Of a stretch of 64,000 nucleotides of DNA, positions 35,127 through 59,064 are shown in pieces. The stretch lies in the IMG/VR virus record IMGVR_UViG_3300023240_000010; one strand, given 5' to 3'. The notes beneath the pieces were generated by a model. The model was not told the origin of the DNA. It ran no database searches and worked only from the letters and a program-made list of their open reading frames with translations. The DNA is from a virus. The translations under genes and the position numbers were made by a program. How positions within the stretch are numbered: the stretch's first letter is position 1; every line of letters begins with the position of its first letter.

Positions 35127-38100
35127 TTAACCTTCTAGTGCTAGAATATATGGAGTTAGAATAGCGTATAGAGATCGTTCAAACGTCTCACCTACAATTC
35201 TACCTTCCTGTCTTTTGATTGTCAATTGAGAACCAATTCTAAAGTCGCCTAACTGATCCGTCGATGTAAATACTACTAAACCTTCGTTTGTTGCTGAGTC
35301 ATATACTACTTCTCTTTCTGGTCTTGGTATACCACCATTCTGAGGAATAGCAGTAAACGTGTTAGTTCCAGATCCAACATATTCAAAGGTGTGAGAAGAT
35401 GATGTAATAACAGATCGCTGTCTGAAAGTCATCTGCTGATTCGCTTTCTTGTTACTATTCAGTCCAGGTTCGAATGCAATGTCGTACATACCGCCACCGA
35501 CTGAATCAACACCCAACACTGTGTAGAAATATTCTTCACTGTCAAACTTCATTGCATCACCGTAGTTAGGCAACTTAGTTTGTCCTACAGTTCCGAAGTA
35601 ATCAGCACTATCTCTATTTATCACTCCTGAAATACGAATGGTGTCATCATACAGAAGTTTTGCTGAATCAAGATTGCCGTCATATAGTACTTGAGAACTA
35701 CCACGAGCAATCAGTCCGTAATCACCAAACGAAGAGTTACTGTTCGTAATAGAACATTGTCCACCAGTTTCAGCAAGAATAGAAGTCTGAGTTGAGATTG
35801 TAAAGATTGATACTAACTGTGCGTAACCACGATTCAACAAGTAAGTACCAATACCAGCGGCATTGTACTGAGTGAATGCGTCTGATACCATCGACTTCAA
35901 TCCAGAACATTTAGATCCGTCAATCTTCATACCGATACCATCGTTGGTAATAGATGTACAGTTCTGAACATATGGTGATTGAACGATGAATGGTCCAGCG
36001 CCAGCACTTTCTACTTTAGGATCATATGCTACACAGGCAGCGAAGTTCTGATGATCTCGGAAAGTAATATCTTTGATGAAACAACCGTTGTCCATATAGA
36101 ACATATCAGAGTCAACACTCTTAGGTCGCACAGTTGTTGTTCTCAAGTTATCACCAACGATTGCTGTCTTAGGCGGTAACTTGATAGGATTGTTTATTGT
36201 ATAATCACCAGACTTCAAGAAGATTGTAGTGTCACCAGTATTCTTAGCAGACTTTACGGACTGAAGAACAATGAAGTCCTGATCTTTCTTGACTGCGGCA
36301 ATCGCGTTTCGTAACTCTACACTTACACCACGACTTGATAGAATAGGATCAACTTCAGTCGGCAGACTGTCAGTATTACCAGCAACTAAAGTGGCAACTA
36401 AGAGGTCGTCAATCAGCGTAGCAATAATGGTTGATTCTGTTGAAGTTGCATACTGACCGGAGTTACCAGTCTCGTTAGGACCATATGCTGAAGTAGTAGT
36501 AACATTACTTGTAAGATTATTGGTGAGAAGTTGTCCAATAATGTCTCTCATATGCTCGTATGTTGCAATTGTTGCCGCAACTTCACCAGGGTTTAATTGA
36601 CTGGCAGCACCAACAAAGTATGCACGAGAGTTTATAACCATGGCGTGTGAACCGCCATATAATATATCGAAGGTTAGACCGTCAACAATAAACCCTATGT
36701 CTCTGCGACATCTAGTTCTATCGTAAGATGAAGGACCGTACAGATTAGCATACTGTATTGCTTGTGTTTGAATCGTGCTTTTCTGTGCTAGAATAGTAGA
36801 GTAGTTTGCCGCTGTTGTAGCATTAACACCAGTAAAGTTTGGTAGAATAGTAGCATCAAGATTGTCTAAACTTTCATCATTAATAACTTCAGTAATGATG
36901 TCCATGAGAACACCCAACTGAGTTGCTTGAGTAGATGTGGCAGTTCCTGCGCTAGTATCTTGACTTGCATAGTTTTCAATAACAACCAGACCTAATGAAG
37001 TCTTCAGATATGCATATGCACCCAGTGTTGCAACCTTCTCACTGGCGCCTAATTGACTTGCAGCACCAACAAAGTATGCTCTTGCACAAGTAACAGCACC
37101 AACATTTCCTTCGTAGACTATATCGTGAGTAAGACCGTCAAGAATATAACCAATATCTCTTTTACGCTTAACTCGATCATAAGTTGTTGGACCATACGAA
37201 TCAGCATACTCTATAACATCTGCTTGCAGGGAGGTGAGCGCACCATTGATGGTGTTGTAGTCTGTAGACACTATACCAGTAAAGTCTGGCAGTACACGAG
37301 TTGCGATCGAATCAAGATTTTCTGCTACAAGAACGTCAATAATAATATCAAGTAACGTGCCCGTTGTGGTTGCTTCTGTAGCAGTTGCAGTTCCGCCTGT
37401 TGTATTCTGACCAGTATATGTTTCTTGAACTATTGATGATAGAATAGTTTTAAGATTATTAAAAGAATCCTGCCGAGCGGCGACTTCTGCGCCACTGACA
37501 ATCACTGTTACTCCATCAACAAAGTATGACCTCGCAACATTGAATGAAGCGAAGTTGCCTGCATAAAGAAGATCGTGAATTATACTTTCAAGAATATAGA
37601 GAACTTCTGTTTGATATTTGCCACGATCATATATAGCAGGACCATACAAGTCAGCAAAGGCAAGTGAGTCTGATTGAATAGTTGTCTTTGCTGCCACAAC
37701 AGTAACAAAGTCAAGAATTATCGGTTCAGCAATAGCAGTCGTATCAGGATTAACTAGTGCAGGAACACCATCAAAGTTACCAGCAGTTAATGCGTCAATA
37801 GTTATCTGAAGAAGACCCTGAAGTCTTGTAGTCTGTAGTAATTGTCCAGACTGAATTTCGCCTGTTACGTCCTGTCCAGTCAAAGTTTCACTGAGCAATG
37901 TACCAAGTTGAGTTTTAAGATTAGTGTATGCCGCAATTGAGGCAGTAACTTCTGCCGCTCCACCTAACTGAGAAACACCATCCTTGAAGTAAGAGAATGC
38001 TAAAATACGTGAAGCGAAGTTGCCATCATACAGAATATCATAAGATAGTCCGTCAAGAATGTAACCTACGTCACGTTCGCATTTTTCAACATTGTAACTT

Positions 38101-40070
38101 AATGAAGGATAGTTTGTAGTGAGATAAGCAATCGTATTGTCAATAAGTAACTGACGGTTATTTCTAATCTGCTCGTGTGCCCAATATTCATTATTCAGAC
38201 TATTAAGAGGAGTAGGATATACAATCACCGGTGCTGGAATCTTTCCTTCAAGAATGTCAAGAATAATTTCAAGATTCTTTAACAATGAAATTTTAGACGA
38301 TTCGTTGATATCCAATGCACTAAGAAGAACACCGATGTTTCTGATAGTCAGTACAGTGCCTTCGACTTGTTCCTCAGGAATAGCACCTGCGCGAGTATAT
38401 GCAAGACCCGCTGTCACTGTATTATAGTTAGTACCAAACAACAAATCGTTGGTCAGTGCTTCGATAATGTAACCCACATCTCGCGAACATTTAGTTCTAG
38501 GATATGTTAATGAGACATGATTCACTGAAACATATGTGGTGCTGGCATCGATGATTAATTGTAAATTATTTAAAATCTGATCTGCGGCATTACGTCTGTT
38601 AGCAGTAGTATTAACAGAGTCTGGATACGCAATAGGAATCGGTTGAAAAGGAGGCACACCCGACATGATAGCGGTCAACTGAACAAACGATGCGTTAATG
38701 TGGGACTTACTTGCCGCACTAATACTTAGAGCATTTATTCCAACTCTTAATACTTCCCAGGCAGCAATTGTAAATGCTAACTGATTTCCTGGCAATGCAT
38801 TGGCACGTCGATACGCAAGACCTGCTGTAATAACATTATAGTCTGTTCCTAACATTAAATCAATAGTTAATGCATCGACAATGTGACCAACGTCTCGTTC
38901 ACACTTAGTTTGGTCGTAATCCTGAACGTCATAGTTGTCCGAGATATACTGAATAGTGTTGTTGATTAATAGGGTTTTGTTATTCTGTATCTGATTGCCA
39001 GCATCTGCCTCTGCTGTTATGGTAGCAGGTGCGGCAGGGAATATAATCGTTGCGGCAGCAGATTCGCCATTGACGATTATGTCAGTGATTTCTTTAACGC
39101 ATGAGGTGATTAAAACTTTCGAAGCGTCAGCAATACTTAGCGATAACATTTGATCACGAACAAAGACAATCACCGCAATTGTGGACGCTACTTGTGCTGT
39201 AGGCAATGCATTTGCTCGTTGATAAGCAATACCTGCGGTCACACAATTATAGTTCGAACCAGTCATTAAGTCTGTGATAACAGCATCAATGATGAAACCC
39301 GTATCACGTAGACATTTAGTTTCGTCGTATGTTAATGTAGGATAGTTTTTAGCAATGAATGTTATAAGTTCATCTTTCAACCATTCACGGTTGTTCTGAA
39401 GAATAATGGCAGCATCATCAGCATCAGCAGTAGGTAATACAGCAGGAGCAGGAAAGACTAGATCGTCGTGTGCTTGTTCTGTGCTTTGCTTACCATTTGT
39501 AAGAATATCTATCACTTCTGACCAGTGAGCATTGTTTCTATATAACGCTCCTGTTACACCAGTGCTTGCCTTTACTAGAGGAATAGAACCAACAGCACCA
39601 CGTGCTTGGTTAAATGCTACAACAGTTGGTTGCAATTGTCCTGTAGTAACTTTATTTGATCCTGCTCTTTGATAAGCATGACCAGATGTTACTGCATTAT
39701 AGTTTGTTCCGAAAGCAATGTCAAGGTAAAGTCCGTCAAGAATATAATTTAAGTCACGAGTACACTTAACTTCATCGAATGCGAATGAACCTAGTGCGGT
39801 AACGGTAGAAACAGCAGAGTCGAGAGTCTTAAAAGAGTCTCCTAGAGAAGTACCAGTATTGCCAAACTTTCCAGATTTAGAAACGTAGTAAACATTCTCT
39901 ACAGCATCTTCGCCTACTTGAATTATATCGACCACACCAAATCTATCACGCTTGAGGTACATTTTACCTTCATGCGTGTTGATCGCTATCTCGCCGAGCG
40001 ATATGTCTGTGTTGCCGGGCGCTTGACCCGGGACATTACTTCGGCGACTTAGTAACTTAGTGCTTGACAT
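35127..40070 (-). CDS. Large virion structural protein: beta-helix domain interrupted by 8 helical KCxRDxGY repeats
   Basis: GEIAINTHEGK N-terminus; YYVSKSG...FKTLDSA and TIFLKSGDY...IVGDNLR halves; QSPYVQNCT. Confidence 0.8.
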   Translation of the reverse strand: MSSTKLLSRRSNVPGQAPGNTDISLGEIAINTHEGKMYLKRDRFGVVDIIQVGEDAVENVYYVSKSGKFGNTGTSLGDSFKTLDSAVSTVTALGSFAFDEVKCTRDLNYILDGLYLDIAFGTNYNAVTSGHAYQRAGSNKVTTGQLQPTVVAFNQARGAVGSIPLVKASTGVTGALYRNNAHWSEVIDILTNGKQSTEQAHDDLVFPAPAVLPTADADDAAIILQNNREWLKDELITFIAKNYPTLTYDETKCLRDTGFIIDAVITDLMTGSNYNCVTAGIAYQRANALPTAQVASTIAVIVFVRDQMLSLSIADASKVLITSCVKEITDIIVNGESAAATIIFPAAPATITAEADAGNQIQNNKTLLINNTIQYISDNYDVQDYDQTKCERDVGHIVDALTIDLMLGTDYNVITAGLAYRRANALPGNQLAFTIAAWEVLRVGINALSISAASKSHINASFVQLTAIMSGVPPFQPIPIAYPDSVNTTANRRNAADQILNNLQLIIDASTTYVSVNHVSLTYPRTKCSRDVGYIIEALTNDLLFGTNYNTVTAGLAYTRAGAIPEEQVEGTVLTIRNIGVLLSALDINESSKISLLKNLEIILDILEGKIPAPVIVYPTPLNSLNNEYWAHEQIRNNRQLLIDNTIAYLTTNYPSLSYNVEKCERDVGYILDGLSYDILYDGNFASRILAFSYFKDGVSQLGGAAEVTASIAAYTNLKTQLGTLLSETLTGQDVTGEIQSGQLLQTTRLQGLLQITIDALTAGNFDGVPALVNPDTTAIAEPIILDFVTVVAAKTTIQSDSLAFADLYGPAIYDRGKYQTEVLYILESIIHDLLYAGNFASFNVARSYFVDGVTVIVSGAEVAARQDSFNNLKTILSSIVQETYTGQNTTGGTATATEATTTGTLLDIIIDVLVAENLDSIATRVLPDFTGIVSTDYNTINGALTSLQADVIEYADSYGPTTYDRVKRKRDIGYILDGLTHDIVYEGNVGAVTCARAYFVGAASQLGASEKVATLGAYAYLKTSLGLVVIENYASQDTSAGTATSTQATQLGVLMDIITEVINDESLDNLDATILPNFTGVNATTAANYSTILAQKSTIQTQAIQYANLYGPSSYDRTRCRRDIGFIVDGLTFDILYGGSHAMVINSRAYFVGAASQLNPGEVAATIATYEHMRDIIGQLLTNNLTSNVTTTSAYGPNETGNSGQYATSTESTIIATLIDDLLVATLVAGNTDSLPTEVDPILSSRGVSVELRNAIAAVKKDQDFIVLQSVKSAKNTGDTTIFLKSGDYTINNPIKLPPKTAIVGDNLRTTTVRPKSVDSDMFYMDNGCFIKDITFRDHQNFAACVAYDPKVESAGAGPFIVQSPYVQNCTSITNDGIGMKIDGSKCSGLKSMVSDAFTQYNAAGIGTYLLNRGYAQLVSIFTISTQTSILAETGGQCSITNSNSSFGDYGLIARGSSQVLYDGNLDSAKLLYDDTIRISGVINRDSADYFGTVGQTKLPNYGDAMKFDSEEYFYTVLGVDSVGGGMYDIAFEPGLNSNKKANQQMTFRQRSVITSSSHTFEYVGSGTNTFTAIPQNGGIPRPEREVVYDSATNEGLVVFTSTDQLGDFRIGSQLTIKRQEGRIVGETFERSLYAILTPYILALEG

Positions 40071-41605: not shown

Positions 41606-41625
41606 TATTTATAGGTTTATTTATA
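41606..41625 (-). promoter_or_regulatory. Two tandem T4 late promoters
   Basis: TATAAATA at 41606-41613 and 41618-41625. Confidence 0.8.
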
Positions 41626-41630
41626 AGAAT

Positions 41631-42305
41631 TTAAGCGTGTATATCTTCAATAACCCAATCTTGTAGACCTAAAGACATCTCTGATCGATCTAATACGAAA
41701 GCGATTGTCATACGTATTCCGCTTTCACCATTACGTGCTGTATGATATACTAGTTTATCAGATCCATCTTCGTATGCGCCGAAGTGTCCTGCCTTACACT
41801 GCCATCCTTTAACATCAGGAATGTGAATCATCTTCTGATTGACTGGATCCCAATGCTTCCACCAACCATCGCCTGTTTCACTGTATGTAAATATAAAGTT
41901 ATATGCTGAAGCATTAGCATTGTTATGCCAAGAGATATAACCGCCAGGTGGATACACCGAGAACAGAGCATTCTTTTTAAGATTGAATGCAGTCTGTACA
42001 TTAGTCATCAACCTACTATGATGATCAGCAACTTCTGCTATCTTTCTATCAATATGTGGGTTATGAGGATCAAACCTATAACCTTGATTGAATGAATAAC
42101 TAGTAACAAAAGCAGGGAACCCATCGTGTCCTCTGCCCTCACTCTTAATCTGCTCAAAGTATTCTTGACCAGTATACCAATCTGCTTTGTCTAAATCATT
42201 TATCTTAGAAGGAATAACCGCACTATAGTTCTCTTGCTTAGTAAACCACAATGCCTCATTCAAAAGATCGATTGCGTAATCATTAAGTGGTATATTTTTC
42301 ATCAT
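41631..42305 (-). CDS. Putative 2OG-Fe(II) oxygenase / double-stranded beta-helix enzyme
   Basis: YPPGGYISWHNN, distal YHTA, RMTIAF: spacing like prolyl-hydroxylase family. Confidence 0.6.
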   Translation of the reverse strand: MMKNIPLNDYAIDLLNEALWFTKQENYSAVIPSKINDLDKADWYTGQEYFEQIKSEGRGHDGFPAFVTSYSFNQGYRFDPHNPHIDRKIAEVADHHSRLMTNVQTAFNLKKNALFSVYPPGGYISWHNNANASAYNFIFTYSETGDGWWKHWDPVNQKMIHIPDVKGWQCKAGHFGAYEDGSDKLVYHTARNGESGIRMTIAFVLDRSEMSLGLQDWVIEDIHA

Positions 42306-42307
42306 AT

Positions 42308-43063
42308 TTAAAAATCCAGTTGCTTTGCTCCAGAAGAAGAATAGTGTCTCAATACGACAGGATCCTTGTTATGCTCATATTTATATTTGGAATAAAAGTT
42401 CCACCGAGCATCGTCTTCTAGTATACCAACTTTCAAATCTTTGTACTTGGGTTCTTTGTTAACTAACCACCACAATGAGAATTGATCCCATCTCTTCAGA
42501 GTAGCAGGATAATTTTCTAAGTCTTCTGTTCCATCTGCTTTCATTGGCCACCACGTTCTGCCATATTGTGCGACAGTTAGATCGTACCAGTCTTGCATGA
42601 ATTCACGAACTAAAGGTTTGCGCATATCATATAGACAAACACCACCACATAATTCGAATCCTGCTTTAGTGCCGTCAGGTTTTCTTGCACCTTCGAAGAA
42701 CACTTCAGCATAGCAGTAATGTCTATCAGCAGGTAAACCAGTAAACATCAAATCATGTCCATCTAGTTTATCAAAGATGGTTGCAATATCTTCGTGTTCA
42801 CATTCTATATCAGCATCGACATAAAATGTAATATCATATGGAGACTTTGCCATACCAATCAGTTTTGCTCTAGCATGGTTATCACAGAATATAACATTGT
42901 CTGCAATTCTTTCTTGTCCGTCAAGAAATCTTTCTTCTACTACAAATGTAATCTGTGCTTCGGGATAATAATCTTTAATCGACTCCATCAAGTTAATGGC
43001 AGAAACATAAAAGAACTTCTTTCGTGATGCTACAATAACATAACCTTTAGTCGGTTCGCTCAT
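42308..43063 (-). CDS. Putative GT-A glycosyltransferase
   Basis: GYVIVAS, AKL...SPYD.TFYVDAD (DxD), GGVCLY, WDQFSL, RWN, LRH; start placed at MSEP. Confidence 0.75.
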   Translation of the reverse strand: MSEPTKGYVIVASRKKFFYVSAINLMESIKDYYPEAQITFVVEERFLDGQERIADNVIFCDNHARAKLIGMAKSPYDITFYVDADIECEHEDIATIFDKLDGHDLMFTGLPADRHYCYAEVFFEGARKPDGTKAGFELCGGVCLYDMRKPLVREFMQDWYDLTVAQYGRTWWPMKADGTEDLENYPATLKRWDQFSLWWLVNKEPKYKDLKVGILEDDARWNFYSKYKYEHNKDPVVLRHYSSSGAKQLDF

Positions 43064-43520
43064 CTTCATCTGCCTTTTTAAAATAACCAAGTTCGGTGCC
43101 AATAACCAATGCTGCCAAGGCATTCATTTCAATAACATTCTTTGCTCTACGTAGTCTGGAACGCAACTCACGATTTGTTGAGTTCTTAATCGTATCTATT
43201 TCGAATGCTTGTAGTTTGGCATTAAAGAGTTGTTCAAGTTCATGAGATTTTTTACGCTGTTCGTGAATAGCACGTTTCTCGCGATCCTCTTTCTCTTTCT
43301 TATCTTTGCGCTCTTGAGTATTAGCGTCGATCTTATCCATACCCCATTGTGCAATAACTGCTTTGAACTGATCACACTCTCTACCGTCAGGTAAAATCTT
43401 ACGTAGTTCAAGAACATCTTTCTTTCTACCGCCTGATGGAATAGGACTTAGACGAATACATTTAAGTATCGTCTTTTCTTCATTTTCCCAATATCCATTA
43501 TCTAAAAATTCCACTGTCAT
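43047..43520 (-). CDS. Hypothetical protein, possible fibre-assembly chaperone
   Basis: NGYWENEEKTILKC resembles Tfa-type N-termini; helical C-terminus; coupled (TAATG) to the giant gene. Confidence 0.55.
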   Translation of the reverse strand: MTVEFLDNGYWENEEKTILKCIRLSPIPSGGRKKDVLELRKILPDGRECDQFKAVIAQWGMDKIDANTQERKDKKEKEDREKRAIHEQRKKSHELEQLFNAKLQAFEIDTIKNSTNRELRSRLRRAKNVIEMNALAALVIGTELGYFKKADEDERTD

Positions 43521-46500
43521 TATGCTACCCTTACATATAATGTGTATGTTTCAATCTGTACTGGATTAGCAAGCAACTTGCCACCAACACCATATAAAAT
43601 AGATGTTTGATAATCTATTGTGTAATCTTGCGTGTATGTTCCGATGTAGTTAGTGTCTTCATAATTCTCTAATACTTCTACATCTTGATAATCTGAAGTA
43701 TAGTCCGTAGAATAATCAACATCATCATAACTTGAAACATAAGTTTCAGAAACATCTGCGCCTTCAAATGTATCTATATAGTTGCCTAAGTACACATCCT
43801 CTTGATAGTCTACTGAGTAGTCTGTATCATAAGTCTGTTCAATATAGTCAACAGTGTAAGACTCGTCAACTGCATTAGCATCATAAGTGCCTGTGTAGTT
43901 TCCAGCATATAGTGTTGAGTACGAAGGAGTATAGTCGCCAAGATAATCACCAACATAAGTTAGTGTGTAGTTTGACTCATAGTCTCCTGCGTAAGTAGTG
44001 CCGTAATCACCAGCATAAGTTGAATCGAAACCGCCTTCGTAGACTCCATCAAATCCTTGCAAGAAATCACCAGCATAAACTGATTCGTAAGTTCCTTCGT
44101 AGATCGTGTTGTAATCACCTAAGTAATTGCCTTCGAAGTCAACAAGATAATCAGTTGTGTAATCTGAAATATAGTTGCCTTCGTATTCGATATCGTCATA
44201 GGTCGAAACATAGTTGCCGAGATAGTTTTGCTCTTCATAAACACCGCTATAGTCTGTGACGTAATCACCACTATAGTCTCCAACATAATCACTAACATAG
44301 TTTCCTACATATACTTGATCGTCGTATGCAGTTTCATAAGTTGAAGTGTATTGACCAATGAAGTCGCCGATATAAAGACTAACATAGTTGCCTGCGTAAT
44401 CAATGTCATCATAGTTAGAAGTGTATTCACTTGCATATGTTGTAAGATATTCTGTCTCGTAGAACCCAGAATAAGTTGCTGTGTAAGGACTCTGATAATC
44501 ACCGGTGTAATCTGTGTTGTAGAAACCTGTGTAATCTGTTTCGAAGTCACTAACATAGTTTCCTGCGTAATCAATATCATCATACTCACCAGTATACTGC
44601 GCGACGAATGTTGATTCGTACTGATTAAGATAGTTTGAATCATATGTTCCTGCGTAGATCGCACCATCATAATCAGTGGTGTATACAGTAGCATAATCAG
44701 ATATATAATCACCATCATATGCAGTACCATAAGTGCCTGCATAGTTCTCTTGGAAGTCTCCCTCGTATCCAGAATCGTAATCAGAGATATAATCGTCCGA
44801 GTACTGTGAGATATAATCGCCAGCATATATGTCAGAAATATACACATCGGTAAAGTTGCCCGCATAATTCTCGGTGAAGTTACCATCATATGTTGAAATG
44901 TAAGCAGAGACATAGTTGCCGTCATACTGTGACGCATATGATCCTTCGTACTGAGTAAGGTATTGTCCTTCGTAAGTCTCAACATATCCAGAGATATAAT
45001 CGCCCAAATAGTCAACTAAGAATGCGCCTTCATAATCTGTGATATAACCTGTGCCATAAGTGCCGGTGAAGTTACCATCATATGTTCCAATAAATGATTC
45101 TTGGAAAGCACCTTCGTAAACAGAGATATAGTCGCCATCATATGTGTCAACATAATCAGAAGCATAGGTTCCTTCGAAGTTAGCAGAGAAGTCGCTTTCG
45201 TATGCTGAACCGTAATCTCCTAGGAAAGTTCCAAGATACTCTGAGTCATACGTACCTTCATATTGCTCTTGAAAGGCACCATCATAAGATGACAAGTATT
45301 GTGAAACATAAGTGTCGATGTAATCTACGTTATAAGTTCCAGTAAATGTAGCAGTAAACTCACTCTCATATTGACTTGAATACTCGCCTGTGTAATCATC
45401 AGTATACGATCCTTCGAAGTCACCTTGATATTGAGTGATGAAGTTTGATTGGTATTGAGAAACGTAATCAGATGTGTAAGTTTCAATGTAGTCTGAGACG
45501 TAGTTGCCTTCATATGTTGCACCAAATGCGCCTTCATATTCAGATAGATACTCGCCTACGAATGTTCCAATATATTGTGCGCTAAACTGAGCGCCAAAGT
45601 TGGCAGCAAAGTTACCTTCATATGATGCTACATAGTTTCCTAGGAATGTGCCGAGATACTGTGCGCTAAAGTCGCCGGTGTATACTACAGCAAAACTGCC
45701 TTCATACTGAGAAACATAGTTTCCTTCGAATGTTCCGAGATAATCAGTTGCGTAAGTTCCCGCGAAAGATTGAGCGAACGATCCTTCGTACTGAGACGCA
45801 TAGTCTCCGTCGAATGTTCCGAGATAGTTAACACCAAACTGACCAGTGAAGTTTTGTGAGAATCCGCCTTCGTACTGTGACGCATAGTCTCCGTCGAATG
45901 TTCCTATATACTGCGATACATATTGGGTTGCGAAGTTTGCCGCAAAAGATCCGGTGTACTGTGTAGCATAATTTGCGTTGAAGGTTCCTAAATAGTTTGC
46001 AGTAAACTGTTGATCTTGCACACGCTCATACGCACCGAGATATTGAGAAAGGTAATCGCCTTCGAATGTTCCAATATATTGTGCGTTAAATGTCTCGTTC
46101 TGCGCACGTTCATATAGTCCTACGTAGGCAGAGTCGAAACTACCTTCGAATGTTGGAATATAGTTAGCAGAGAAGTTCTCGTTCTGCGCACGTTCATATA
46201 GTCCTGCGTATTGACCAGTATAACCACCAGTATATGTTCCATCATAGTTTGCAGTGAATTGCTCGTCCTGCGCACGTTCATATAGTCCAGTGTATTGACC
46301 AGTATAGTTACCTATGAATGTTCCTAGATAATCAGATGCATAGTTCGCAGCATCGTCTCGATCATATACACCAAGATATTGTCCCAGGTATTGACCAATA
46401 TAGTCGCCTAAATAGTCAGAAGTTCTTGTCTGATTCTGCGCACGTTGATAACCACCAGCATATTGCCCAACATAATCACCTTCGAATGTTCCCGTATAGT

Positions 46501-49500
46501 TTGCGGTGAACTGCTCTTGTACATCACCTTGATATGCACCAGTGTATACGCCAAGATATTGTCCTGTGTAAGTACCTTCAAAGACTGCTGTACGAGTTTC
46601 ATTCTGCGCACGTTCATATAGTCCTACATAACCGCCAGTATATTGTCCAGTAAAGTTACCTTCATAAGTTGCACTTCGTGTGGTATTCTCTGCACGTTCA
46701 TAACCACCAGTATATCCACCGGTGTATGATTGTTGAATACCCTCTTGAGTGGTCTGTGATATAACTTCCTGAGCAGTTCGTTCATAACCGCCAGTATATC
46801 CACCAGTGTAAACACCAGTATATTGACCAGAGTATTGTCCTGTGTATGTTCCACCTCCGACAGCATAATTTGTCGTAGTCGGAGAGTTGGCAATTACACC
46901 GACTTGCCAACCACTATTTGCAGGAAACGCTGATGGAGGTTGTCCGAATGGGGACCAAGTCAAAGTACTCACTGGGCCATTAGCGCCAGTCCATGTAAAT
47001 GCAGTTCCATAATAATTGTTGGCATAAGTGGCAGAGGCGCGGAGGAATGTATAACCGTTCCTATCAGCAGTTGTACCATATGCCGGCGCACCGCTCACCG
47101 GCGCGCCGGAACCTGAACCGTACCACCAAATTATTATACCATACCAACTATTTCTCTGAGTAGTGCTAAGTGCTGATGTAAATGTCAGTGTTACGTATGG
47201 CCCCGGTGCCACCCCAAATGACTCATTCTTAGTTAACGCATGAACGGTAGCATTTATAGGAGACCAATAGGTATCTGCCATACTATTGCCGGCGGACTGG
47301 TTACCGCCAGAATAACCCGAAGGAGTTGGGTTAAAACCTATAGAATATTGGGTAAGGTAAAGGTTTGTATAATAACCTGTCACCATTGTTGTCGAGTCGG
47401 TGTAATTGTTGCCCGTATAGTTGACAGTGCTAGTGAATGACTCATTAGTTGACTGTGTTATTGCTTCAGAAATACCAGTCTGTTGTGTCTCTTGTACTTG
47501 ACCAGTATATCCACCTTGATATCCACCAGTGTATCCACCAGTGTAAGTACCGGTGTAAGTAGACTGTATAGTCTCTTGTACTTGACCAATATATTGTCCT
47601 GTGTAAGCGGCGACATAATTTGCAGCAAAGGTTTCGTTAATAGCAGTTTGTTGTGTCTCCGAGATTTGACCAATATATTGTCCTACAAAGTTGCCTGTGT
47701 AGTTCTCCTGAATTACCTCGTTAACACCATCAGTAATGTTCTCAGACTGTATGCGAGTATAACCACCAGTAAATTGTGTAGCATAGTCTGCTCTATCGTA
47801 TGATCCTTGGAAAGTTTCATTAATGCTTTCGCCCACAACACCAGTATATTGTCCTGTGTATGCTGCCTGATAACTTCCTCGCTCGAAAGATCCTGTAAAC
47901 AATTCATTGATACTTTCTCCTACACCACCAACATAATTGCCTGTAAATTGTGTGTTGTAGTTTTGTCTATCGTAGTTTTCAGCATTAACTGTGTCTAGGT
48001 TTTCAGAAATCTGTCCTGTGTATTGTCCCGTAAACTGTGTCGCATATTGTCCGCGGTCAAAAGATTCTTGGTTAGTAGTGTTCTCACTCTCGCCAATCTG
48101 TCCTACATATTGTCCTGTGAAGGTCGAAGTATAGATTCCGCCATCATAATTACCAGTATATGATACATTCTCAGTTTGTCCTACCTGACCAACATATTGT
48201 CCAGTATATTGAGATGCATAGTCTAGTCTATCATACGATCCTAAGAATGTTGCGCTGAAAGACTCTGGTACACCACCAGTATAACCACCGGTAAATTGTG
48301 TAGCGTAGTCTATTCTATCATACGATGCTAGATAATTAGCAGTAAATGCGCCTTCATAATCACCTGTATAAATTTGCTCATACTCTCGCGTATATGATGC
48401 GCGGTCATACGTACCCAAGAAGGTTGCAGTGAAAGCACCACTATAATCGCCTGTGTATATGCCTTCGTACTGTGTGAGATAATTAGCACGATCATAAGCA
48501 CCCTGAAATGATGCTGTAAAGTTACCTAAATAATCGCCCGAGTAAACAGTTTCAAATTCGTTTGTATAGTTTGTACTATCATATGTTCCTAAGAATGTTG
48601 CATTGAAAGCACCACTATAGTTACCGGTGTAGTCAACAGTAAAGTTCGAAATATAACCTGAACTATCATAGTCGCCTAAGTAGTCTGTATTGTATAGACC
48701 AATATAGTTTCCGGTATAAGTTGCAGCAAATTGAGTCTCGTATGCTTGACTATCATATTCACCCGAGAAGGTTGCGCTGAATGATCCTGTGTATGAACTT
48801 GCGTATGATGATATATAATCACCCGCATATGTTCCAGCATCATAATTCGCTGTGAAGGATGCACTAAAATCAGAAACATAATCTGTAGCATACTGCGCTG
48901 TGAATATAGAAGTGTATGCAGAACCCGCAAAAGAGGCAGCGAATTGACCAGTGAACTGACCAACATAGTTACCTAAATAGTCCGACTCGAATGCACCAAC
49001 GTAAGGAATACCGTCGAAACTGGCAGCAAAGTTCTGACTGAATGTTCCGATGTAATCACCGATATAAGATGAATCATATACTGATAGGTACGTAGTGCTA
49101 TCGTACTCGCCAATAAAGGATGCTGTGAATAATCCTGAGTACTCGCCAGTATAAGTTGTTTCGAACTCAGCGATATATGCTTGAGCATCATAAACACTTA
49201 CATAAGCAGAATCGTAATTGCCAAGATAATCGCCAACATAAGTTTCTTCGTATGTTGATATGTAATCTGTGCCTTGATAATCTGTAGCATATTCTGTATT
49301 GTATAGACCAATATAGTTGCCAACATATTGACTAGCATAGTTGCCTTGATACTCGACTCCATCAAATACACCAGTGTATAGTGTTTCAAATTGTCCACCA
49401 TATTCACTCTCATAAGTTGAAACATAATCAGAAACATATTCAGTGCCATCATAAGGCGAGATATAATCACCAAGATAATCTGATATGTAATCACCAGTAT

Positions 49501-51964
49501 AGATGCCAGTATATTCTACAGTATAGTCTGTTGAGTACTGCGCTTCATAATTACCAGAGTAGGTAGAAATATATTCTCCACCATAATCGCCTACATATAC
49601 TGTTTCGAACTCATCAGTGTATTGTGAAAGATAGTTTCCTGCATATACATTCTCATATCCAGCATCAAAGGTTGCTGTATAATCTGTCTCGAATCCGCCA
49701 ACATATACAGCATCAAACTGAGTAGTATAATTTGTTTCGTACTCTCCAGCATATGTTCCGAGATAATCGCTGATGTAATCACCAGCGTATAAATTTGTGT
49801 AAACACCTTCAAAGGCAGTTTCATAATCAGCAACAAAGTTGCCCTCATATGCCACTTCATCATACTCGCCTTCATATTGTGTAATATAGTCAGTTGTATA
49901 ATCCGACTCATATCCACTTGCATATGTTCCTAGATAATCACTGATGTAATCACCAAGATAGTTCTCTGCGAACTGACCTTCGTATTGTGAGTCGTAATCT
50001 GTTAGATATGTTCCAAGATAATCAGCAGTGAAGTCTCCAGCGTAAGTTGCTTGAAAGTCTCCTTCGTAGGAGTTATCATATACACCCTCATAACTTGCGC
50101 CGTAATCGCCTAGATAATCACCGTCATAAGTTCCAAGATAGTTACTGATGTAATCGCTGGTATAATCAGTAATGTAGTTTCCTGTGTATACATCATCGAT
50201 ATAGTTCGAGATATAGTTGCCAAGATATTCAGTCTGGAATCCACCAAGATAATCTGAAACATAGTTGCCTACATACTCTGTGCCAGAATAATCTGAAAGA
50301 TATGTGTTTGTGTAATCACTGATATAGTCTGTGTTGTAATCACTGATATAGTTACCAGTGTAATCAACAGATTCGTAGTCACTAGCATACTGTTCAATAA
50401 CAGCATCAGCATCATATGTGTTTTCATAATCACTAATGTAATCGGTGCCATCATAAGTAGGCACGTATTGATTAACGTAATCACCGAGATAGTTTTGTGT
50501 GTATTCTGTATTGTAATCGCCGAGGTAGTTCTGTGTGTAGTCACCCAGATAATCGCCATCGTATGTTGGAGTATATGAACCAGTATAATCACCGTCATAT
50601 GTTCCTAAGTATTCACCAGCAAATTCACCACTATATGTTGGTTCATAGTTGCCAGTATAAGTTGCTTCATAGTCGCCGAGATAGTCTTCTGTATACTGAG
50701 CAGTGTAAGTTTCTAGTGCTTGATAACCTGTATCATAATAGTATTCAAGTCTAGTATCAATTGCACTACCACGTGCTACCCATGTACCAGTATCTGTCGG
50801 TCGACCTTGAGTCGCTGAACGTAATTGATATTTACCAATACCAGTAGTTTCGACCGCTTTCTTTACTCGCTCACCAAACGTGAACTCTACTTCTGCATCG
50901 CTATGTTGTCTTAGTCCTGCCCATCCATTCTGAGCATTACGTGCAATATAAAGAGGTCTAATTACAGCAGGTTTAATGCCTGCTTGTCTGATCCATATAG
51001 AATAAGGTATAACAGTTCCATCGCCACGTGTGTCATTAAATACACTAGGAATAAACTGTACCCAATCAGCGCCAGGACTGTTCGCACTTAGACGATACGT
51101 ACCAGGCAACTCGTCTCGCATGATACGTATGACCAACTCTTCGCAAAATGCGTCAAGTTCTGCGTCATTCATCTCCTTAACACCGTTGGGCGTTAATGCT
51201 CTGCTCCAATATAATGGATTTTTCTTTAATGCACTAGTAGTATTAATAGGTTGTGATGCTGTTGTTACTTGATAAAGATCAGTCTGAACACCTATAGACT
51301 CCGGTGGTAAGGTCTCTTCGATTTCAATAGTAGGGAATACAATACTAGTGTTAGCAGTTTGTTTAGTTGTGTTTTGAACGTCAGTAGAGTTGGCAGTTAA
51401 AGTGAAGTTTAAAAGACCTACTTGAGTTGCTTTGATTTCGAATGTTGATTGATATGATCCTGAAAGACCACCGACAGTACTGAAGTCTTCCCACTCAACT
51501 CTTGTTCCATCAACTGAGTTAGCAGTAGGGGTTGTAGTAACGCCTTCGTTATCAAATAGTGCATCACCAGATACTGAAAGTTCGTGTCCGATCTCTTCAA
51601 ATCCAGTTACTGCGTCACCATTTACAACAACATAAACTGTATCGCCGACATATAGAGGAGACGGCATCTCACCCTGTGCGGTGAATATTGCGGTGTGTAT
51701 ACCAGTGCCAGGATTTGATCTATGTTCAACAGTGAAATTGACTGTGTAAAATGTGCCTGGTGTATCACCGACAGAGGTTTCGAAGAAGGTGTCGGTGAAA
51801 GTGCCGACAGCAGTTGCTCCACTACTCGTAGTAGTCAGAGCAGAAACATCGACATTGGTCATTTTTCCAAGATGTACTCCCGCCTGATACGCCAGATAAT
51901 CTATATCGAGCGTAGCGAGTTCTTGAAGTGCACCAGTTGCTAGGTGTTTTAACGGTAAGGACAT
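43520..51964 (-). CDS. Giant 2814-aa Tyr-rich tetrapeptide-repeat protein, probably virion-associated
   Basis: Uninterrupted 8.4-kb ORF; (Y/F)xxx periodicity over ~2200 aa; late promoter upstream. Confidence 0.85.
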   Translation of the reverse strand: MSLPLKHLATGALQELATLDIDYLAYQAGVHLGKMTNVDVSALTTTSSGATAVGTFTDTFFETSVGDTPGTFYTVNFTVEHRSNPGTGIHTAIFTAQGEMPSPLYVGDTVYVVVNGDAVTGFEEIGHELSVSGDALFDNEGVTTTPTANSVDGTRVEWEDFSTVGGLSGSYQSTFEIKATQVGLLNFTLTANSTDVQNTTKQTANTSIVFPTIEIEETLPPESIGVQTDLYQVTTASQPINTTSALKKNPLYWSRALTPNGVKEMNDAELDAFCEELVIRIMRDELPGTYRLSANSPGADWVQFIPSVFNDTRGDGTVIPYSIWIRQAGIKPAVIRPLYIARNAQNGWAGLRQHSDAEVEFTFGERVKKAVETTGIGKYQLRSATQGRPTDTGTWVARGSAIDTRLEYYYDTGYQALETYTAQYTEDYLGDYEATYTGNYEPTYSGEFAGEYLGTYDGDYTGSYTPTYDGDYLGDYTQNYLGDYNTEYTQNYLGDYVNQYVPTYDGTDYISDYENTYDADAVIEQYASDYESVDYTGNYISDYNTDYISDYTNTYLSDYSGTEYVGNYVSDYLGGFQTEYLGNYISNYIDDVYTGNYITDYTSDYISNYLGTYDGDYLGDYGASYEGVYDNSYEGDFQATYAGDFTADYLGTYLTDYDSQYEGQFAENYLGDYISDYLGTYASGYESDYTTDYITQYEGEYDEVAYEGNFVADYETAFEGVYTNLYAGDYISDYLGTYAGEYETNYTTQFDAVYVGGFETDYTATFDAGYENVYAGNYLSQYTDEFETVYVGDYGGEYISTYSGNYEAQYSTDYTVEYTGIYTGDYISDYLGDYISPYDGTEYVSDYVSTYESEYGGQFETLYTGVFDGVEYQGNYASQYVGNYIGLYNTEYATDYQGTDYISTYEETYVGDYLGNYDSAYVSVYDAQAYIAEFETTYTGEYSGLFTASFIGEYDSTTYLSVYDSSYIGDYIGTFSQNFAASFDGIPYVGAFESDYLGNYVGQFTGQFAASFAGSAYTSIFTAQYATDYVSDFSASFTANYDAGTYAGDYISSYASSYTGSFSATFSGEYDSQAYETQFAATYTGNYIGLYNTDYLGDYDSSGYISNFTVDYTGNYSGAFNATFLGTYDSTNYTNEFETVYSGDYLGNFTASFQGAYDRANYLTQYEGIYTGDYSGAFTATFLGTYDRASYTREYEQIYTGDYEGAFTANYLASYDRIDYATQFTGGYTGGVPESFSATFLGSYDRLDYASQYTGQYVGQVGQTENVSYTGNYDGGIYTSTFTGQYVGQIGESENTTNQESFDRGQYATQFTGQYTGQISENLDTVNAENYDRQNYNTQFTGNYVGGVGESINELFTGSFERGSYQAAYTGQYTGVVGESINETFQGSYDRADYATQFTGGYTRIQSENITDGVNEVIQENYTGNFVGQYIGQISETQQTAINETFAANYVAAYTGQYIGQVQETIQSTYTGTYTGGYTGGYQGGYTGQVQETQQTGISEAITQSTNESFTSTVNYTGNNYTDSTTMVTGYYTNLYLTQYSIGFNPTPSGYSGGNQSAGNSMADTYWSPINATVHALTKNESFGVAPGPYVTLTFTSALSTTQRNSWYGIIIWWYGSGSGAPVSGAPAYGTTADRNGYTFLRASATYANNYYGTAFTWTGANGPVSTLTWSPFGQPPSAFPANSGWQVGVIANSPTTTNYAVGGGTYTGQYSGQYTGVYTGGYTGGYERTAQEVISQTTQEGIQQSYTGGYTGGYERAENTTRSATYEGNFTGQYTGGYVGLYERAQNETRTAVFEGTYTGQYLGVYTGAYQGDVQEQFTANYTGTFEGDYVGQYAGGYQRAQNQTRTSDYLGDYIGQYLGQYLGVYDRDDAANYASDYLGTFIGNYTGQYTGLYERAQDEQFTANYDGTYTGGYTGQYAGLYERAQNENFSANYIPTFEGSFDSAYVGLYERAQNETFNAQYIGTFEGDYLSQYLGAYERVQDQQFTANYLGTFNANYATQYTGSFAANFATQYVSQYIGTFDGDYASQYEGGFSQNFTGQFGVNYLGTFDGDYASQYEGSFAQSFAGTYATDYLGTFEGNYVSQYEGSFAVVYTGDFSAQYLGTFLGNYVASYEGNFAANFGAQFSAQYIGTFVGEYLSEYEGAFGATYEGNYVSDYIETYTSDYVSQYQSNFITQYQGDFEGSYTDDYTGEYSSQYESEFTATFTGTYNVDYIDTYVSQYLSSYDGAFQEQYEGTYDSEYLGTFLGDYGSAYESDFSANFEGTYASDYVDTYDGDYISVYEGAFQESFIGTYDGNFTGTYGTGYITDYEGAFLVDYLGDYISGYVETYEGQYLTQYEGSYASQYDGNYVSAYISTYDGNFTENYAGNFTDVYISDIYAGDYISQYSDDYISDYDSGYEGDFQENYAGTYGTAYDGDYISDYATVYTTDYDGAIYAGTYDSNYLNQYESTFVAQYTGEYDDIDYAGNYVSDFETDYTGFYNTDYTGDYQSPYTATYSGFYETEYLTTYASEYTSNYDDIDYAGNYVSLYIGDFIGQYTSTYETAYDDQVYVGNYVSDYVGDYSGDYVTDYSGVYEEQNYLGNYVSTYDDIEYEGNYISDYTTDYLVDFEGNYLGDYNTIYEGTYESVYAGDFLQGFDGVYEGGFDSTYAGDYGTTYAGDYESNYTLTYVGDYLGDYTPSYSTLYAGNYTGTYDANAVDESYTVDYIEQTYDTDYSVDYQEDVYLGNYIDTFEGADVSETYVSSYDDVDYSTDYTSDYQDVEVLENYEDTNYIGTYTQDYTIDYQTSILYGVGGKLLANPVQIETYTLYVRVA
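45783..46624 (-). repeat. 84-bp periodic coding repeats within the giant gene
   Basis: TGCGCACGTTCATATAGTCC at 46101, 46185, 46269, 46605; near-identical ~38-mers at 45783 and 45867. Confidence 0.85.
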
Positions 51965-51995: not shown

Positions 51996-52003
51996 TATTT
52001 ATA
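51996..52003 (-). promoter_or_regulatory. T4 late promoter for the giant-protein unit
   Basis: TATAAATA overlapping the stop of the upstream gene. Confidence 0.8.
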
Positions 52004-52229
52004 TGCTTCTGGAAAGCAATAATGCGAGAGCGTCCTTTATTTCACACATATCTTTCTGAAGCGTTTCTACTGTTTTCACTAAGTCTGTCTGATCTTTTTG
52101 TTGTTGTCCTCTTATTTTTTTCTGTCTCTGGGCAAGTTCGATCTCGTGAGCATTTACGTTTATTAACGCATTAGACTCCATATCTCGAACTAACCCAGGA
52201 ACACCCTCTACTTTGACGTAGCGCGACAT
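51999..52229 (-). CDS. Small hypothetical protein with C-terminal coiled coil
   Basis: VKVEGVPGLVRD..SNALIN; coupled to the upstream gene. Confidence 0.75.
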   Translation of the reverse strand: MSRYVKVEGVPGLVRDMESNALINVNAHEIELAQRQKKIRGQQQKDQTDLVKTVETLQKDMCEIKDALALLLSRSI

Positions 52230-55200
52230 TAACTTGCTAACCACTTAACTACTACACTACCTATGGTTGCAGGTGTTGCAGGATTAGTACCCGTGGTAAT
52301 TATCTTAGTCTGTGCTTGTGTGAATGGATTCAGTGTACCTGCAACACCGCCTGCAAGAAACTTAACTCTGCGACTTTGACCATCTTTAACAATAATGTTA
52401 AATTCTGGTTGAAGTATCCAGGACAGTTCACTAAGATTCTGATCTGAAGTACCTACACGATAGTAGACAAGTACACTACCTGTTGGTGGTATTGATAAGT
52501 CAGCACTAATTTCAATACCGATAGCAGGTGATTCAAGAACGACTGGTTTCATAATATGTGCAGAACTTGAACTCGCTCCCGACGATGCTGTATTAGCAAC
52601 ATTGTAGATGTGAGGAGTAACCGATGGATCATCAATCAAGTTATTTACAGTGACCAAAGATGATCGTTGTAAGTCAATGATTGGTGAGACATAATCGTTA
52701 GCACTCTTCATGTCAACTTTAAAGAAAGTAGAAGAAGTGAATGTTGCAACACCTTCGCCAGTCCTATCAGAATCAACTTCAAACTGATTGTACAGAGTGT
52801 ATGTAGCAGCAAGATCAGTGTTAGTCTTAGGAGTAATTCTAGTGAAGTTAGCATCCTGTGCGAATCGTGTCTCCGTACCAGAGATAGATCGTCCAGTAGT
52901 AAACTTACCGGACACATCAATCGAAGTAGAGTTAGGAATAATCGACTCGATAATTGGATTAACTACTGAGAAGTTTATGTTGCCTTGTGACAATACTCTT
53001 TCGCCACCACCAGTTGCAGTCGATGTTGCAGTAACAGGATTAGAAGGACTAATTTCAAATCTGTAACCGTACATATCAACATCGATAACTTGATGTGATC
53101 CACTCAACTGCTCGGCAGTGAATCCGCCTGTTGCAGTAGCACTATCAATGTTAGCACCGTCACCTGCACGTAGACCATGATTGACATGTCGAACGTAAAT
53201 GTTGGCAGAACTGTTTACAGTTTGAATTGGATTCTCTTCAAGCAGTTTAGAAGGCACAACGGCATTCTTCAGTATCAAACTACCGTTAGCACCACCGCCA
53301 GAACCGAACACTGCACGAGTAACTTTAAACATTAAGTCTTCGTTCAAAGACTTCTCCCAGTTCTTACCGTTCTGTGGCAAGAAGAGATAACCCGGAGTCT
53401 GTGTGCTGTTGAATCTACCAGTCGTGTTGATAACTGACTCGCTAGTTCTTGCACTAAACAACTCATATTCAGTTGACTGTGAAGTAACTACAATAGCATA
53501 GTCTTGTCCTGGTGCCAAGTAAACAGGTTCATCGAATACGAATGACGTTCCGTTACCTTGAATAGTAACTAACTGACTAGAGAGTTCCGAAACAATAACA
53601 TTTGCGCGGTTGACAAATACTTGTGAATCTGGTACCATAGTACTGTAAGAAGGTTTACCATTCTCGACAGGTCGAATATGTATAGAAACGGGCAGAGATA
53701 CATTAGCAGGTTTCGACTTAAAGAACAACTCGACTTTAGTTAGTGTAACACCAAACTCGTTGTTGACTTTAAATGTCTGTGCTAAAGGATTCATCGGAGT
53801 AGAGATTGCTTTTGTACCGAGAACAGAAGCAAACTGTGCCTGATTCACATTGATATAGTCGGACAGAACCTTAGACATATCTTGATTATTAGCAAGTGTC
53901 TGTAATGCTGCCGCGTTTAATGTAGCGCCGTCAGGACTATATAATCCAGATAATCTAGGATCAATAATACTTACTGAACTAGCAGGTATAGAATCAAGAA
54001 CCTTCTTCATCTCTTTTGCAGAATACAATCTATGTCTATAGTTGTAAGGATACAGATAACTATGACCACGTGTAAATGATAGAGGGTTGTACCAAGTCCA
54101 AGGCAACAGTCCTTTAACAGTGTAGTGTGCGAATGCTTTACTATTAGCGCCTGCCCAATCATTTACATTAATATCGAGAAGTTTAAACTCTCGCGCGCCT
54201 GATCTGAATCGTAGATAATACTTACTATATCGTCCACGATACTTAGTAGTAGCAACTTCATACTTTGGAGTGAGGTTAGGTATGAAGAATGATCCAATAA
54301 CTTCACCGTTAGCATCAGCAATAAGTTCGCTTGTGCCGTCAGGATGACCAAGAACTGCTGAGTGTGTTAACTTGTTACCAATTTCATCTGCTCTATCAGA
54401 CCACTGAAGGAATGAAGACTCTGATTTACACCATACCGAAACATCAGTACCGTCAAAGAACGGAGTGAACTTAGTGTTAGGAGTCAGACCTTGTGCTTTA
54501 AAGTAAATCTTTCGTGAGCGAATCCATGGTACAAATGCAACATCGATAGTCTTTTCACCGACAACATTACGTAAAGTCTCGCCAGCAATGATACGTCTAA
54601 CTATTCCAGAATCGTTTATTCCATATTTCGTTTTCAGAGTTCTAAGAGCGAACGCTTTTGATCTGCCTGAACCAGTACGAAGAGTCTGAGATAACTTAGC
54701 AATCTCTGTATTCTCTTTCGCAGTACGACCCTGCCAGTTCCACTGCCAGTTGTTCCATAAGAATGCTTGCTTACCGAATAGTCTTCCTGCACCAGCAAGA
54801 GACTTAGCGGCATTTTGAATAGACTCTTTCCACTCATCAGTTGACGGTGATAATTTCAAAGTGCCTACGTTGTCAACAAGACCGAACGGATTGATTTTAA
54901 CTGTTCTTGATGCAAGACTTTGATCGACCCAGTTCGCTTCAGTGTGAGCAAGATAGACATTATCGCCTTTCTTGACAACACCCGACGATGCCGTAGCATC
55001 AAAGATTAGACGCATATTACCTTCATCGAATGAAGGACGTACTAAACGATTTTCAGGATCAATTGCTGCCTTATAGTCAGGAGATTCTACTTCAGCATTA
55101 GTCTGATCGGCATGTTCATCTACTTGCATACCACTAATGATACGTAGTACACCCGCACTATCAAGAACATTGTCCATTCTTGCTTCAAGTTCTGCAATGC

Positions 55201-59056: not shown

Positions 59057-59064
59057 TATTTATA
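59057..59064 (-). promoter_or_regulatory. T4 late promoter for gp8
   Basis: TATAAATA. Confidence 0.8.

Follow-up and report, generated by a model that had tools for sequence, protein, structure and literature searches.

The described structure closest in design to the protein considered here is the distal needle of bacteriophage T4 gp37. PMC9659904, which relays Bartual 2010, portrays this needle as six-stranded and antiparallel, with a head domain at the turn; it measures ~15 nm, belongs to a parallel trimeric fibre, of which it takes up only the final ~200 residues, and holds seven Fe ions bound by His. A second known system, the triple-stranded beta-helix of T4 gp5, is built on the octapeptide VxGxxxxx (PMC3004832). 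Our study concerns one gene of the IMG/VR virus record IMGVR_UViG_3300023240_000010, of which a stretch of 64,000 nucleotides, here called the window, was analyzed. On its minus strand, positions 43520-51964 form a single uninterrupted open reading frame (ORF) of 2,814 codons, with its stop codon at 43520-43522, which encodes a giant Tyr-rich protein (P0001). We consider it probable that this protein is a one-chain out-and-back hairpin, in which an anchor domain is followed by an outgoing arm 1, a distal domain, an arm 2 that returns antiparallel and in register, and a C-terminal strand that closes the base. An earlier inspection of the DNA letters, hereafter the sequence-only reading, had proposed this out-and-back course, and it is now supported by the equal length of the arms, by insertions and deletions (indels) mirrored between them and by a predicted closure of the base.

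Measured against the described systems, the protein would be a new structural variant of phage fibre in a large uncharacterised family. With the gp37 needle, the protein would share a chain that runs out to a distal head and returns antiparallel, a receptor-binding part at the turn and segment ends that are proximal; both are also encoded in a T4-type host-recognition region. Unlike in gp37, the whole protein beyond the anchor would here be hairpin, with up to ~1,100-1,470 residues per arm and up to ~100 times more per strand. The iron-binding His-x-His is absent (0 His in 2,200 arm residues), a four-residue aromatic/small code being found instead, the C-terminus would plug back into the N-terminal domain, and there is no detectable homology between the two proteins. 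The sequence-only reading had recognised no characterised family with this layout; our searches returned no family match, but the out-and-back principle itself has a precedent in the gp37 needle (PMC9659904). The gp5 beta-helix and other short-period fibre repeats resemble our protein in having a short Gly-containing period, an all-beta structure and a place in a phage tail protein, yet gp5-type chains are parallel and intertwined with a distal C-terminus, whereas the comparative data presented below demand antiparallel halves. In the work of Ruhe et al. from 2018, the receptor-binding domain of CdiA reportedly lies mid-sequence at the distal tip of the filament, from where the chain returns baseward. 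CdiA differs in being a bacterial toxin-delivery protein with an FHA beta-helix, in being unrelated in sequence and in having a return segment that is not zipped in register.

The protein is composed of five segments (Table 1), the boundaries of which had been placed correctly within ~10 residues by the sequence-only reading. Tyr occurs 417 times and Phe 132 times among its 2,814 residues; of the 548 intervals from one Y/F to the next, 432 are of exactly 4, which bears out the claim of an aromatic residue at every fourth position. The basic unit is identical in both arms and consists of an aromatic residue, a variable one (T/L/E/A/I/V), a small one (G in 45-49%, then S/A/T) and a polar one (D/N/T/Q). 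This is not the collagen-like pattern with Gly at every third position, the period being 4 with the aromatic at position 0 and G/S/A/T at position 2. The overall composition of the two arms is almost identical: arm 1 contains 191 Y, 52 F, 136 G, 165 D+E, 10 K+R and 0 H, and arm 2 contains 195 Y, 56 F, 139 G, 174 D+E, 12 K+R and 0 H, with Cys and Trp also absent from both. Their net charges are about -155 and about -162, respectively. Arm charge was observed to depend on the clade, the window clade having two strongly acidic arms and the C48C1/L041 clade having Arg-rich ones. In several small members of the family (P0050, P0084, and P0035), a basic arm 1 made of YTRDR units faces an acidic arm 2 made of YxGD/E units, as if the charges of the two arms were complementary across the hairpin.

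For the single-centre homologues, arm 1 was taken to begin at the conserved end of the N-domain and to stop at the central domain; arm 2 covered the chain after this domain, up to the C-terminal motif. Counted in this way, that is, to aa 2804, arm 2 of the window protein has 1102 residues and arm 1 has 1110, which agrees with the near-equality noticed earlier. The same was observed in the four other homologues that have a single centre, with arm 1 and arm 2 lengths of 1467 and 1457 residues in L006, 952 and 951 in L008, 786 and 760 in L015, and 774 and 787 in L011; within the window clade, the arms are equal within a few percent across a two-fold size range. In a broader set of 33 family members, called as repeat-insert-repeat by an automatic mask, the lengths of the two arms correlate with r=0.93 (0.78 without the window clade). 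The median absolute log2 ratio of their lengths is 0.16 as compared with 1.10 in shuffled data, and the observed value was not attained in any of 10,000 shuffles (p<1e-4). Co-variation of the arm lengths among homologues, one of the checks that the sequence-only reading had proposed, is therefore positive both in the five near-equal homologues and over the 33 members.

Special attention was given to the indels that separate related members of the family, as these mirrored and compensatory changes are, at the level of sequence comparison, the strongest result for the out-and-back reading. The window protein and L006 are 76% identical overall. Relative to L006, blocks of 170, 32, 96, and 58 residues are absent from arm 1 of the window protein and blocks of 56, 96, 32, and 172 residues are absent from its arm 2, which mirrors the order of the block sizes in arm 1; each arm has a net change of 356 residues. 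The break points can be placed reliably, the flanks of these indels being 71-92% identical, and the midpoints of partner blocks add up to 3877-3903 in L006 numbering, that is, i+j is approximately constant. The partner blocks contain similar numbers of aromatic units (42/44, 8/8, 24/23, and 14/14) and correspond to local tandem duplications: two extra copies of 85 residues in arm 1 versus two extra copies of 86 residues in arm 2, four extra 32-residue copies in each arm, and a 58/56 pair that consists of twice a 29-mer and twice a 28-mer.

Mirrored changes were also found in other lineages. Between L041 and L044, indels of 12, 16, and 30 residues in arm 1 are answered by indels of 30, 16, and 12 in arm 2, with midpoint sums of 1843-1845; the order is likewise reversed in L034/L040 (12 and 10 in arm 1, 10 and 12 in arm 2) and in L040/L046 (102 and 48, then 48 and 102). 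One indel of equal size in each arm distinguishes L037 from L041 (28 and 28), L065 from both L073 and L069 (44 and 44 in each case), and L050 from L049 (28 and 28, that is, seven units more per strand). The sizes are 166 and 189 in L008/L015 and 603 and 574 in L021/L011. Over 13 pairs of homologues, not all phylogenetically independent and with at least six separate clades contributing, the net length changes of arm 1 and arm 2 correlate with r=0.994 and are exactly equal in 7 pairs. In size, the indels correspond to whole numbers of 4-residue units (20, 28, 32, 44, 96, etc.) and to no fixed larger coil. A correspondence between position i and position (constant - i) had been suggested beforehand as a check of the hairpin, and the equal-size indel pairs at mirrored positions, both in window/L006 and in the other lineages, provide it.

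The composition along the arms is mirrored as well. Acidic units free of R/K lie near both termini, F-rich units are intermediate, and the zones adjacent to the centre hold, in both arms, R-marked super-repeats together with Q/T/G-rich YTGG/YTGQ units, in the zone order that the sequence-only reading had described. A scan of composition gave an anti-diagonal similarity higher than any diagonal in five out of five proteins, with modest z-scores. The super-repeats recognised earlier are real: in arm 1, one 5-residue spacing occurs per 29 residues at 838-1389, with YDR marks at 1157-1389, and arm 2 is strictly 28-periodic at 1727-1979, beside the centre, with YER marks. This 28/29 super-period may reflect supercoiling of the stalk.

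At the DNA level, the repeats are old and degenerate, with 60-80% identity. A DNA palindrome was considered as the source of the mirror symmetry and was ruled out, as 0 inverted DNA repeats were found within the giant gene; the symmetry would consequently be a constraint at the protein level. Given that the arms are matched position by position and that no DNA palindrome links them, only selection on the protein would keep the match, and arms matched under such selection would be expected to touch each other, in register and antiparallel.

Structure predictions addressed the base of the proposed hairpin. Most complete members of the family end in the motif ETYTLYVR[VIT][AS] or a close variant of it. 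An AlphaFold2 (AF2) model of the 494-residue member P0035, based on a 46-row alignment, has a predicted local distance difference test (pLDDT) score >90 for the N-domain and of 87-98 for residues 470-494, with long strands at 234-268 and 456-492 and intervening arms of pLDDT ~30; in this single-chain model, the base closes on its own chain. For the window protein, aa 1-470 and aa 2745-2814 were modelled as two separate chains with ESMFold2, using our own alignments. The interaction prediction score from aligned errors (ipSAE) between the N-domain and the C-strand was 0.83 (0.83, 0.85, and 0.80 in the runs), while the best of three controls scored 0.00. In calibration, 58 of 80 solved complexes and 2 of 110 mismatched pairs attained the mark applied to this score, a guide that is only rough here as our own alignments were used. 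The pLDDT of the C-terminal partner is at least 49, which makes its own fold uncertain, and at least 58% of the contacts agree between runs.

The contacts predicted with confidence between the two chains are antiparallel and join 378-382 with 2812-2807 and 395-401 with 2812-2807. Residues 2807-2812 are thus predicted to lie between strand 377-383 and strand 393-411, the latter of which continues into arm 1. These models support an antiparallel docking of the C-terminal strand beside the strand that starts arm 1 and, together with the AF2 model of P0035, are in line with the earlier proposal that both termini lie at the base. No similar complex is known, so the predicted docking is unlikely to come from the memory of a solved structure. 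A Foldseek search of the P0035 model against PDB and BFVD gave no match at E<=0.001, and a shape search of the ESM Atlas with this model returned only the family's own unnamed viral clusters. With VIA-align, the N-domain plus C-strand showed a beta-prism resemblance (MABP, MACPF C-terminal) at Z 5.5-7.6, which is the range of chance arrangements.

The identity between the window protein and L006 is V-shaped along the chain: it amounts to 85-95% near either terminus and drops to 40% in the central domain. Between clades, the central domains differ, with lengths of 95-184 residues. Such a pattern would be expected if the attachment end is conserved and the distal end evolves rapidly, and the central domain is probably the distal, receptor-binding tip. 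AF2, run on the centre of the window protein with ~80-90 residues of each arm and a 5-row alignment, predicts this domain to be beta-rich at low confidence; with a mean pLDDT of 33, the model was unusable. Pfam, PHROG, PDB-sequence and word-index homologue searches identified no relatives of the central domain outside its clade, and a language-model atlas search gave weak unnamed leads only.

According to the hairpin model, the chain would start in a globular anchor domain, exit from it as a beta-strand and run outward as arm 1. The variable globular domain would form at the far end, and arm 2 would return antiparallel and in register with arm 1 until the last ~20 residues insert as a strand into the N-domain, beside the strand where arm 1 began. 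A unit could be gained or lost in one arm only with a matching gain or loss at the mirror position of the other, and the length of the stalk would be tuned by paired tandem duplications and deletions. The comparative data suggest that the arms form an extended zipped beta-ribbon; with ~1,100 residues per arm, it would measure up to ~370 nm if fully extended at 0.33 nm per residue, a figure that would change with twisting, supercoiling or oligomerisation.

It is important to note that several observations weigh against this model. Within the window clade, the midpoint sums drift by about ±15 residues and the exact register is not fixed; the YDR and YER marks of the two arms align at a different constant from that of the indels, and a register scan based on charge complementarity and aromatic coincidence is ambiguous owing to the 4-residue periodicity. 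Both AF2 runs left the arms unmodelled (pLDDT ~25-35) and yielded no model in which they are zipped. The multi-insert homologues (C48C1, P0003, and P0065) are not obviously two-armed: their repeat totals are 965 versus 988 in C48C1 with one mask and 1024 versus 1006 in P0003 with another, a looser mask destroys both, and this balance, dependent as it is on the segmentation parameters, was not counted as evidence; side domains may be present on one of the arms in such relatives. The window protein has two strongly acidic arms, which would bring like charges side by side if they were zipped. In addition, a free two-stranded ribbon hundreds of nm long would, to our knowledge, be without precedent, and the present picture probably lacks some higher-order packing.

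An arrangement of several chains would refine the hairpin model rather than contradict it. In a trimer or other oligomer of hairpins, which we regard as possible without being likely, the stalk would be a six-stranded antiparallel needle like the T4 gp37 tip, with layers of Tyr and small residues replacing the Fe-His core. The proposal fits the fact that phage fibres are typically trimers and that the gp37 needle is itself six-stranded and antiparallel with its head at the turn (PMC9659904). The alternation of Y with G/S along one face would lend itself to a packed core, and the failure of the AF2 monomer on the arms would be expected if partner chains were needed. It agrees less well with the N-domain and C-strand, which fold confidently as a monomer (pLDDT >90), unlike intertwined trimeric domains, with the absence of His from either arm, and with the failure of sequence and profile searches to link the protein to gp37 or any fibre family.

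The equal arms and mirrored indels would equally be predicted if the pairing took place between two chains lying head to tail, arm 1 of one with arm 2 of its partner and the C-strand in the partner's N-domain, which would leave anchors at both ends of the rod. The docking of the C-strand on the N-domain would be expected in this arrangement too, as the ends were modelled as separate chains. We nevertheless find it very unlikely and infer that the pairing takes place within one chain. The minimal members of the family (317-331 aa) have ~6 YTGx units, a 3-5-residue G/P-rich turn and ~5 units back; arms of ~20-24 residues joined by such a turn fit a tight intrachain hairpin, which favours pairing within one chain over head-to-tail chains. 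Moreover, the single-chain AF2 model closes on itself at the base, and conserved ends with a variable centre suit one base and one tip. Viewed from its sequence, the window protein is this minimal hairpin design lengthened ~fifty-fold, and its turn carries an inserted domain. A conventional parallel fibre, in which each arm would be a beta-solenoid or triple beta-helix rod of its own, with a knob mid-way, a distal C-terminus and equal arms as the relic of a duplication, is scarcely credible: short-period G-containing repeats are indeed known from triple beta-helices, the T4 gp5 octapeptide being one example (PMC3004832), and C48C1 and P0003 resemble rods with many beads, but independent rods give no cause for mirrored equal-size indels in at least six lineages, the indels come in 4-residue units and not in coil-sized quanta, the arms are mirrored in composition and are not direct repeats of one another, and the invariant C-terminus is predicted inside the N-domain.

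The single-chain hairpin, if correct, would apply to a large family. A profile of the core (aa 230-408), built from 9 sequences, identified 425 cluster representatives at E<=1e-3 and 115 at E<=1e-30; these clusters were defined at 50% identity, and their number is a lower bound for the family. Its members range from about 317 to 4,046 aa. Neither the whole protein nor the N-domain, the centre or the small homologues gave a match in Pfam, PHROG, NCBIfam or the PDB sequences. Phage C48C1 (OQ984149, unclassified Kyanoviridae) is the nearest record and, among 50,697 phage genomes, the sole carrier of a homologue, the family N-core being found in it by tblastn at E 4e-24. The corresponding CDS0201, a 'hypothetical protein' of 3,347 aa, as well as a 3,756-aa metagenomic protein, has the same N-core, a body with an aromatic residue at every fourth position and an identical C-terminal motif. 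CDS0201 resembles the window protein in its N-domain (42% identity), its aromatic-every-fourth arms, its C-terminal ETYTLYVRVA and the same three downstream genes; it differs in having basic arms of R-rich YSRTR units in place of acidic ones and a return part with many globular inserts, and it is unannotated. Our search of the literature on C48C1 or on a Tyr tetrapeptide fibre found nothing relevant. We also observed that the C48C1 homologue (L001, 11677-21720) contains an exact tandem duplication of ~75 residues (KTRHRSYLYY...SGQY twice), which extends from the last part of one globular insert into the beginning of the repeat run that follows; it may have arisen recently or result from an error of assembly.

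The window is a T4-like structural region in which gp6- and gp8-type baseplate wedge genes are followed by the DUF4815 protein, and the order gp6, gp8-like, VrlC-like, giant, 157, 271, 224, 361, 1647 is kept in related viral contigs. The VrlC/DUF4815 gene is directly followed by the giant gene. In marine pelagi- and cyanomyophages, VrlC has been reported to mark the start of a hypervariable host-recognition cluster, with tail fibres as the usual products of the genes directly downstream (PMC7029224). The late-promoter motif TATAAATA occurs 13 times in the window, where 5.4 copies would be expected, and all copies are on the minus (coding) strand, including those at 51996-52003, 42378-42385, 41606-41625, and 59057-59064. 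The 271-aa gene contains one copy, and two more stand directly after the 224-aa gene; from this arrangement, the giant gene and its three followers look like a single late unit. From its position after VrlC, its late-promoter motif and its place among baseplate and tail-fibre genes, we infer that the protein belongs to the virion, as an appendage fixed near the baseplate. The family as a whole would, by its sequences and gene context, represent widespread late proteins in the host-recognition cluster of marine T4-like phages (Pantevenvirales, C48C1 relatives). In addition, an ORF of ~74 codons at 52005-52228 on the minus strand, rich in charged residues and probably helical, was found between the VrlC-like gene and the late-promoter motif of the giant gene.

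Table 1. Features of the giant gene, its product and the neighbouring genes, in window coordinates.
Feature	Coordinates	Strand	Basis or remark
Whole ORF, P0001, 2,814 aa	43520-51964	-	ORF open; full-length homologues exist
N-terminal anchor domain, aa 1-408, non-periodic	50741-51964	-	Family core aa 230-408 at nt 50741-51277
Arm 1 (outward), aa 409-1518, 1110 aa	47411-50740	-	Y/F at each 4th residue; one 5-residue unit per 29 aa at 838-1389
Central non-periodic W/Y/G/P-rich domain, aa 1519-1702, 184 aa	46859-47410	-	Putative distal tip
Arm 2 (return), aa 1703-2792	43589-46858	-	Y/F at each 4th residue; 28-aa super-repeat at 1727-1979
C-terminal docking strand (predicted), aa 2793-2814, ending in ETYTLYVRVA	43523-43588	-	Motif conserved in >100 family representatives
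157-aa protein	43047-43520	-	First of the trio; start codon overlaps the giant gene's stop; no family match
271-aa protein, candidate GT-A glycosyltransferase	42308-43123	-	Invariant DxD, D103/D105
224-aa conserved protein	41631-42305	-	Cassette conservation; invariant W-H-x-N-x-N ... H ... R
1,647-aa protein	35127-40070	-	Strong tail-fibre PHROG matches; further downstream
T4-type late-promoter motif TATAAATA	51996-52003	-	32 nt upstream of the giant-gene ATG; putative promoter, from the motif
1,798-aa DUF4815/VrlC-like protein (phrog_358)	52229-57625	-	PHROG match; precedes the giant gene

The three genes downstream of the giant gene accompany the family. The 157-aa gene follows the family gene in most complete loci and was undetected by tblastn in five of the smallest (L049, L050, L052, L056, and L061). 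Homologues of the 271- and 224-aa proteins were found after the family gene at every locus that extends far enough, with family proteins that range from 317 to 3,513 aa. No PDB, Pfam or NCBIfam match was obtained for the 224-aa protein. The 271-aa protein has an invariant Y-x-D-x-D-x-E motif, its best PDB match is glycogenin-1 at a sub-threshold E of 0.3, and GT-A Pfam families gave sub-threshold matches in 11 of the 17 members of its set; on these weak signals, it is probably a GT-A glycosyltransferase. Glycogenin glucosylates a tyrosine, so the glycogenin-like signal makes Tyr-O-glycosylation of the fibre a lead. In its most extended form, our proposal would define a new fibrous protein class, a single-chain, in-register Tyr/Gly ladder hairpin that could grow by single units to hundreds of nanometres, is base-closed by its own C-strand, bears an exchangeable receptor-binding domain at its turn and has tyrosines that may be O-glycosylated by the adjacent GT-A enzyme. 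Marine T4-like phages would then adjust the reach of a host-sensing filament by means of paired duplications. Taken with all these elements, we consider it a doubtful and still speculative proposal.

If the hairpin model is true, the fibre design would be one not described before, with one chain, two zipped arms and a four-residue code, and the family would offer a natural series from ~5 to ~370 units per arm. It would account for a large and abundant unannotated family, of at least 425 clusters at 50% identity, that starts the host-recognition cluster of uncultured marine T4-like phages. The mirrored compensatory indels would be an unusually clear natural case of a structural constraint readable from sequence alone. 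Length-programmable rigid spacers could be derived from such arms for protein engineering, and it would become easier to predict which region of these giant genes makes contact with the host.

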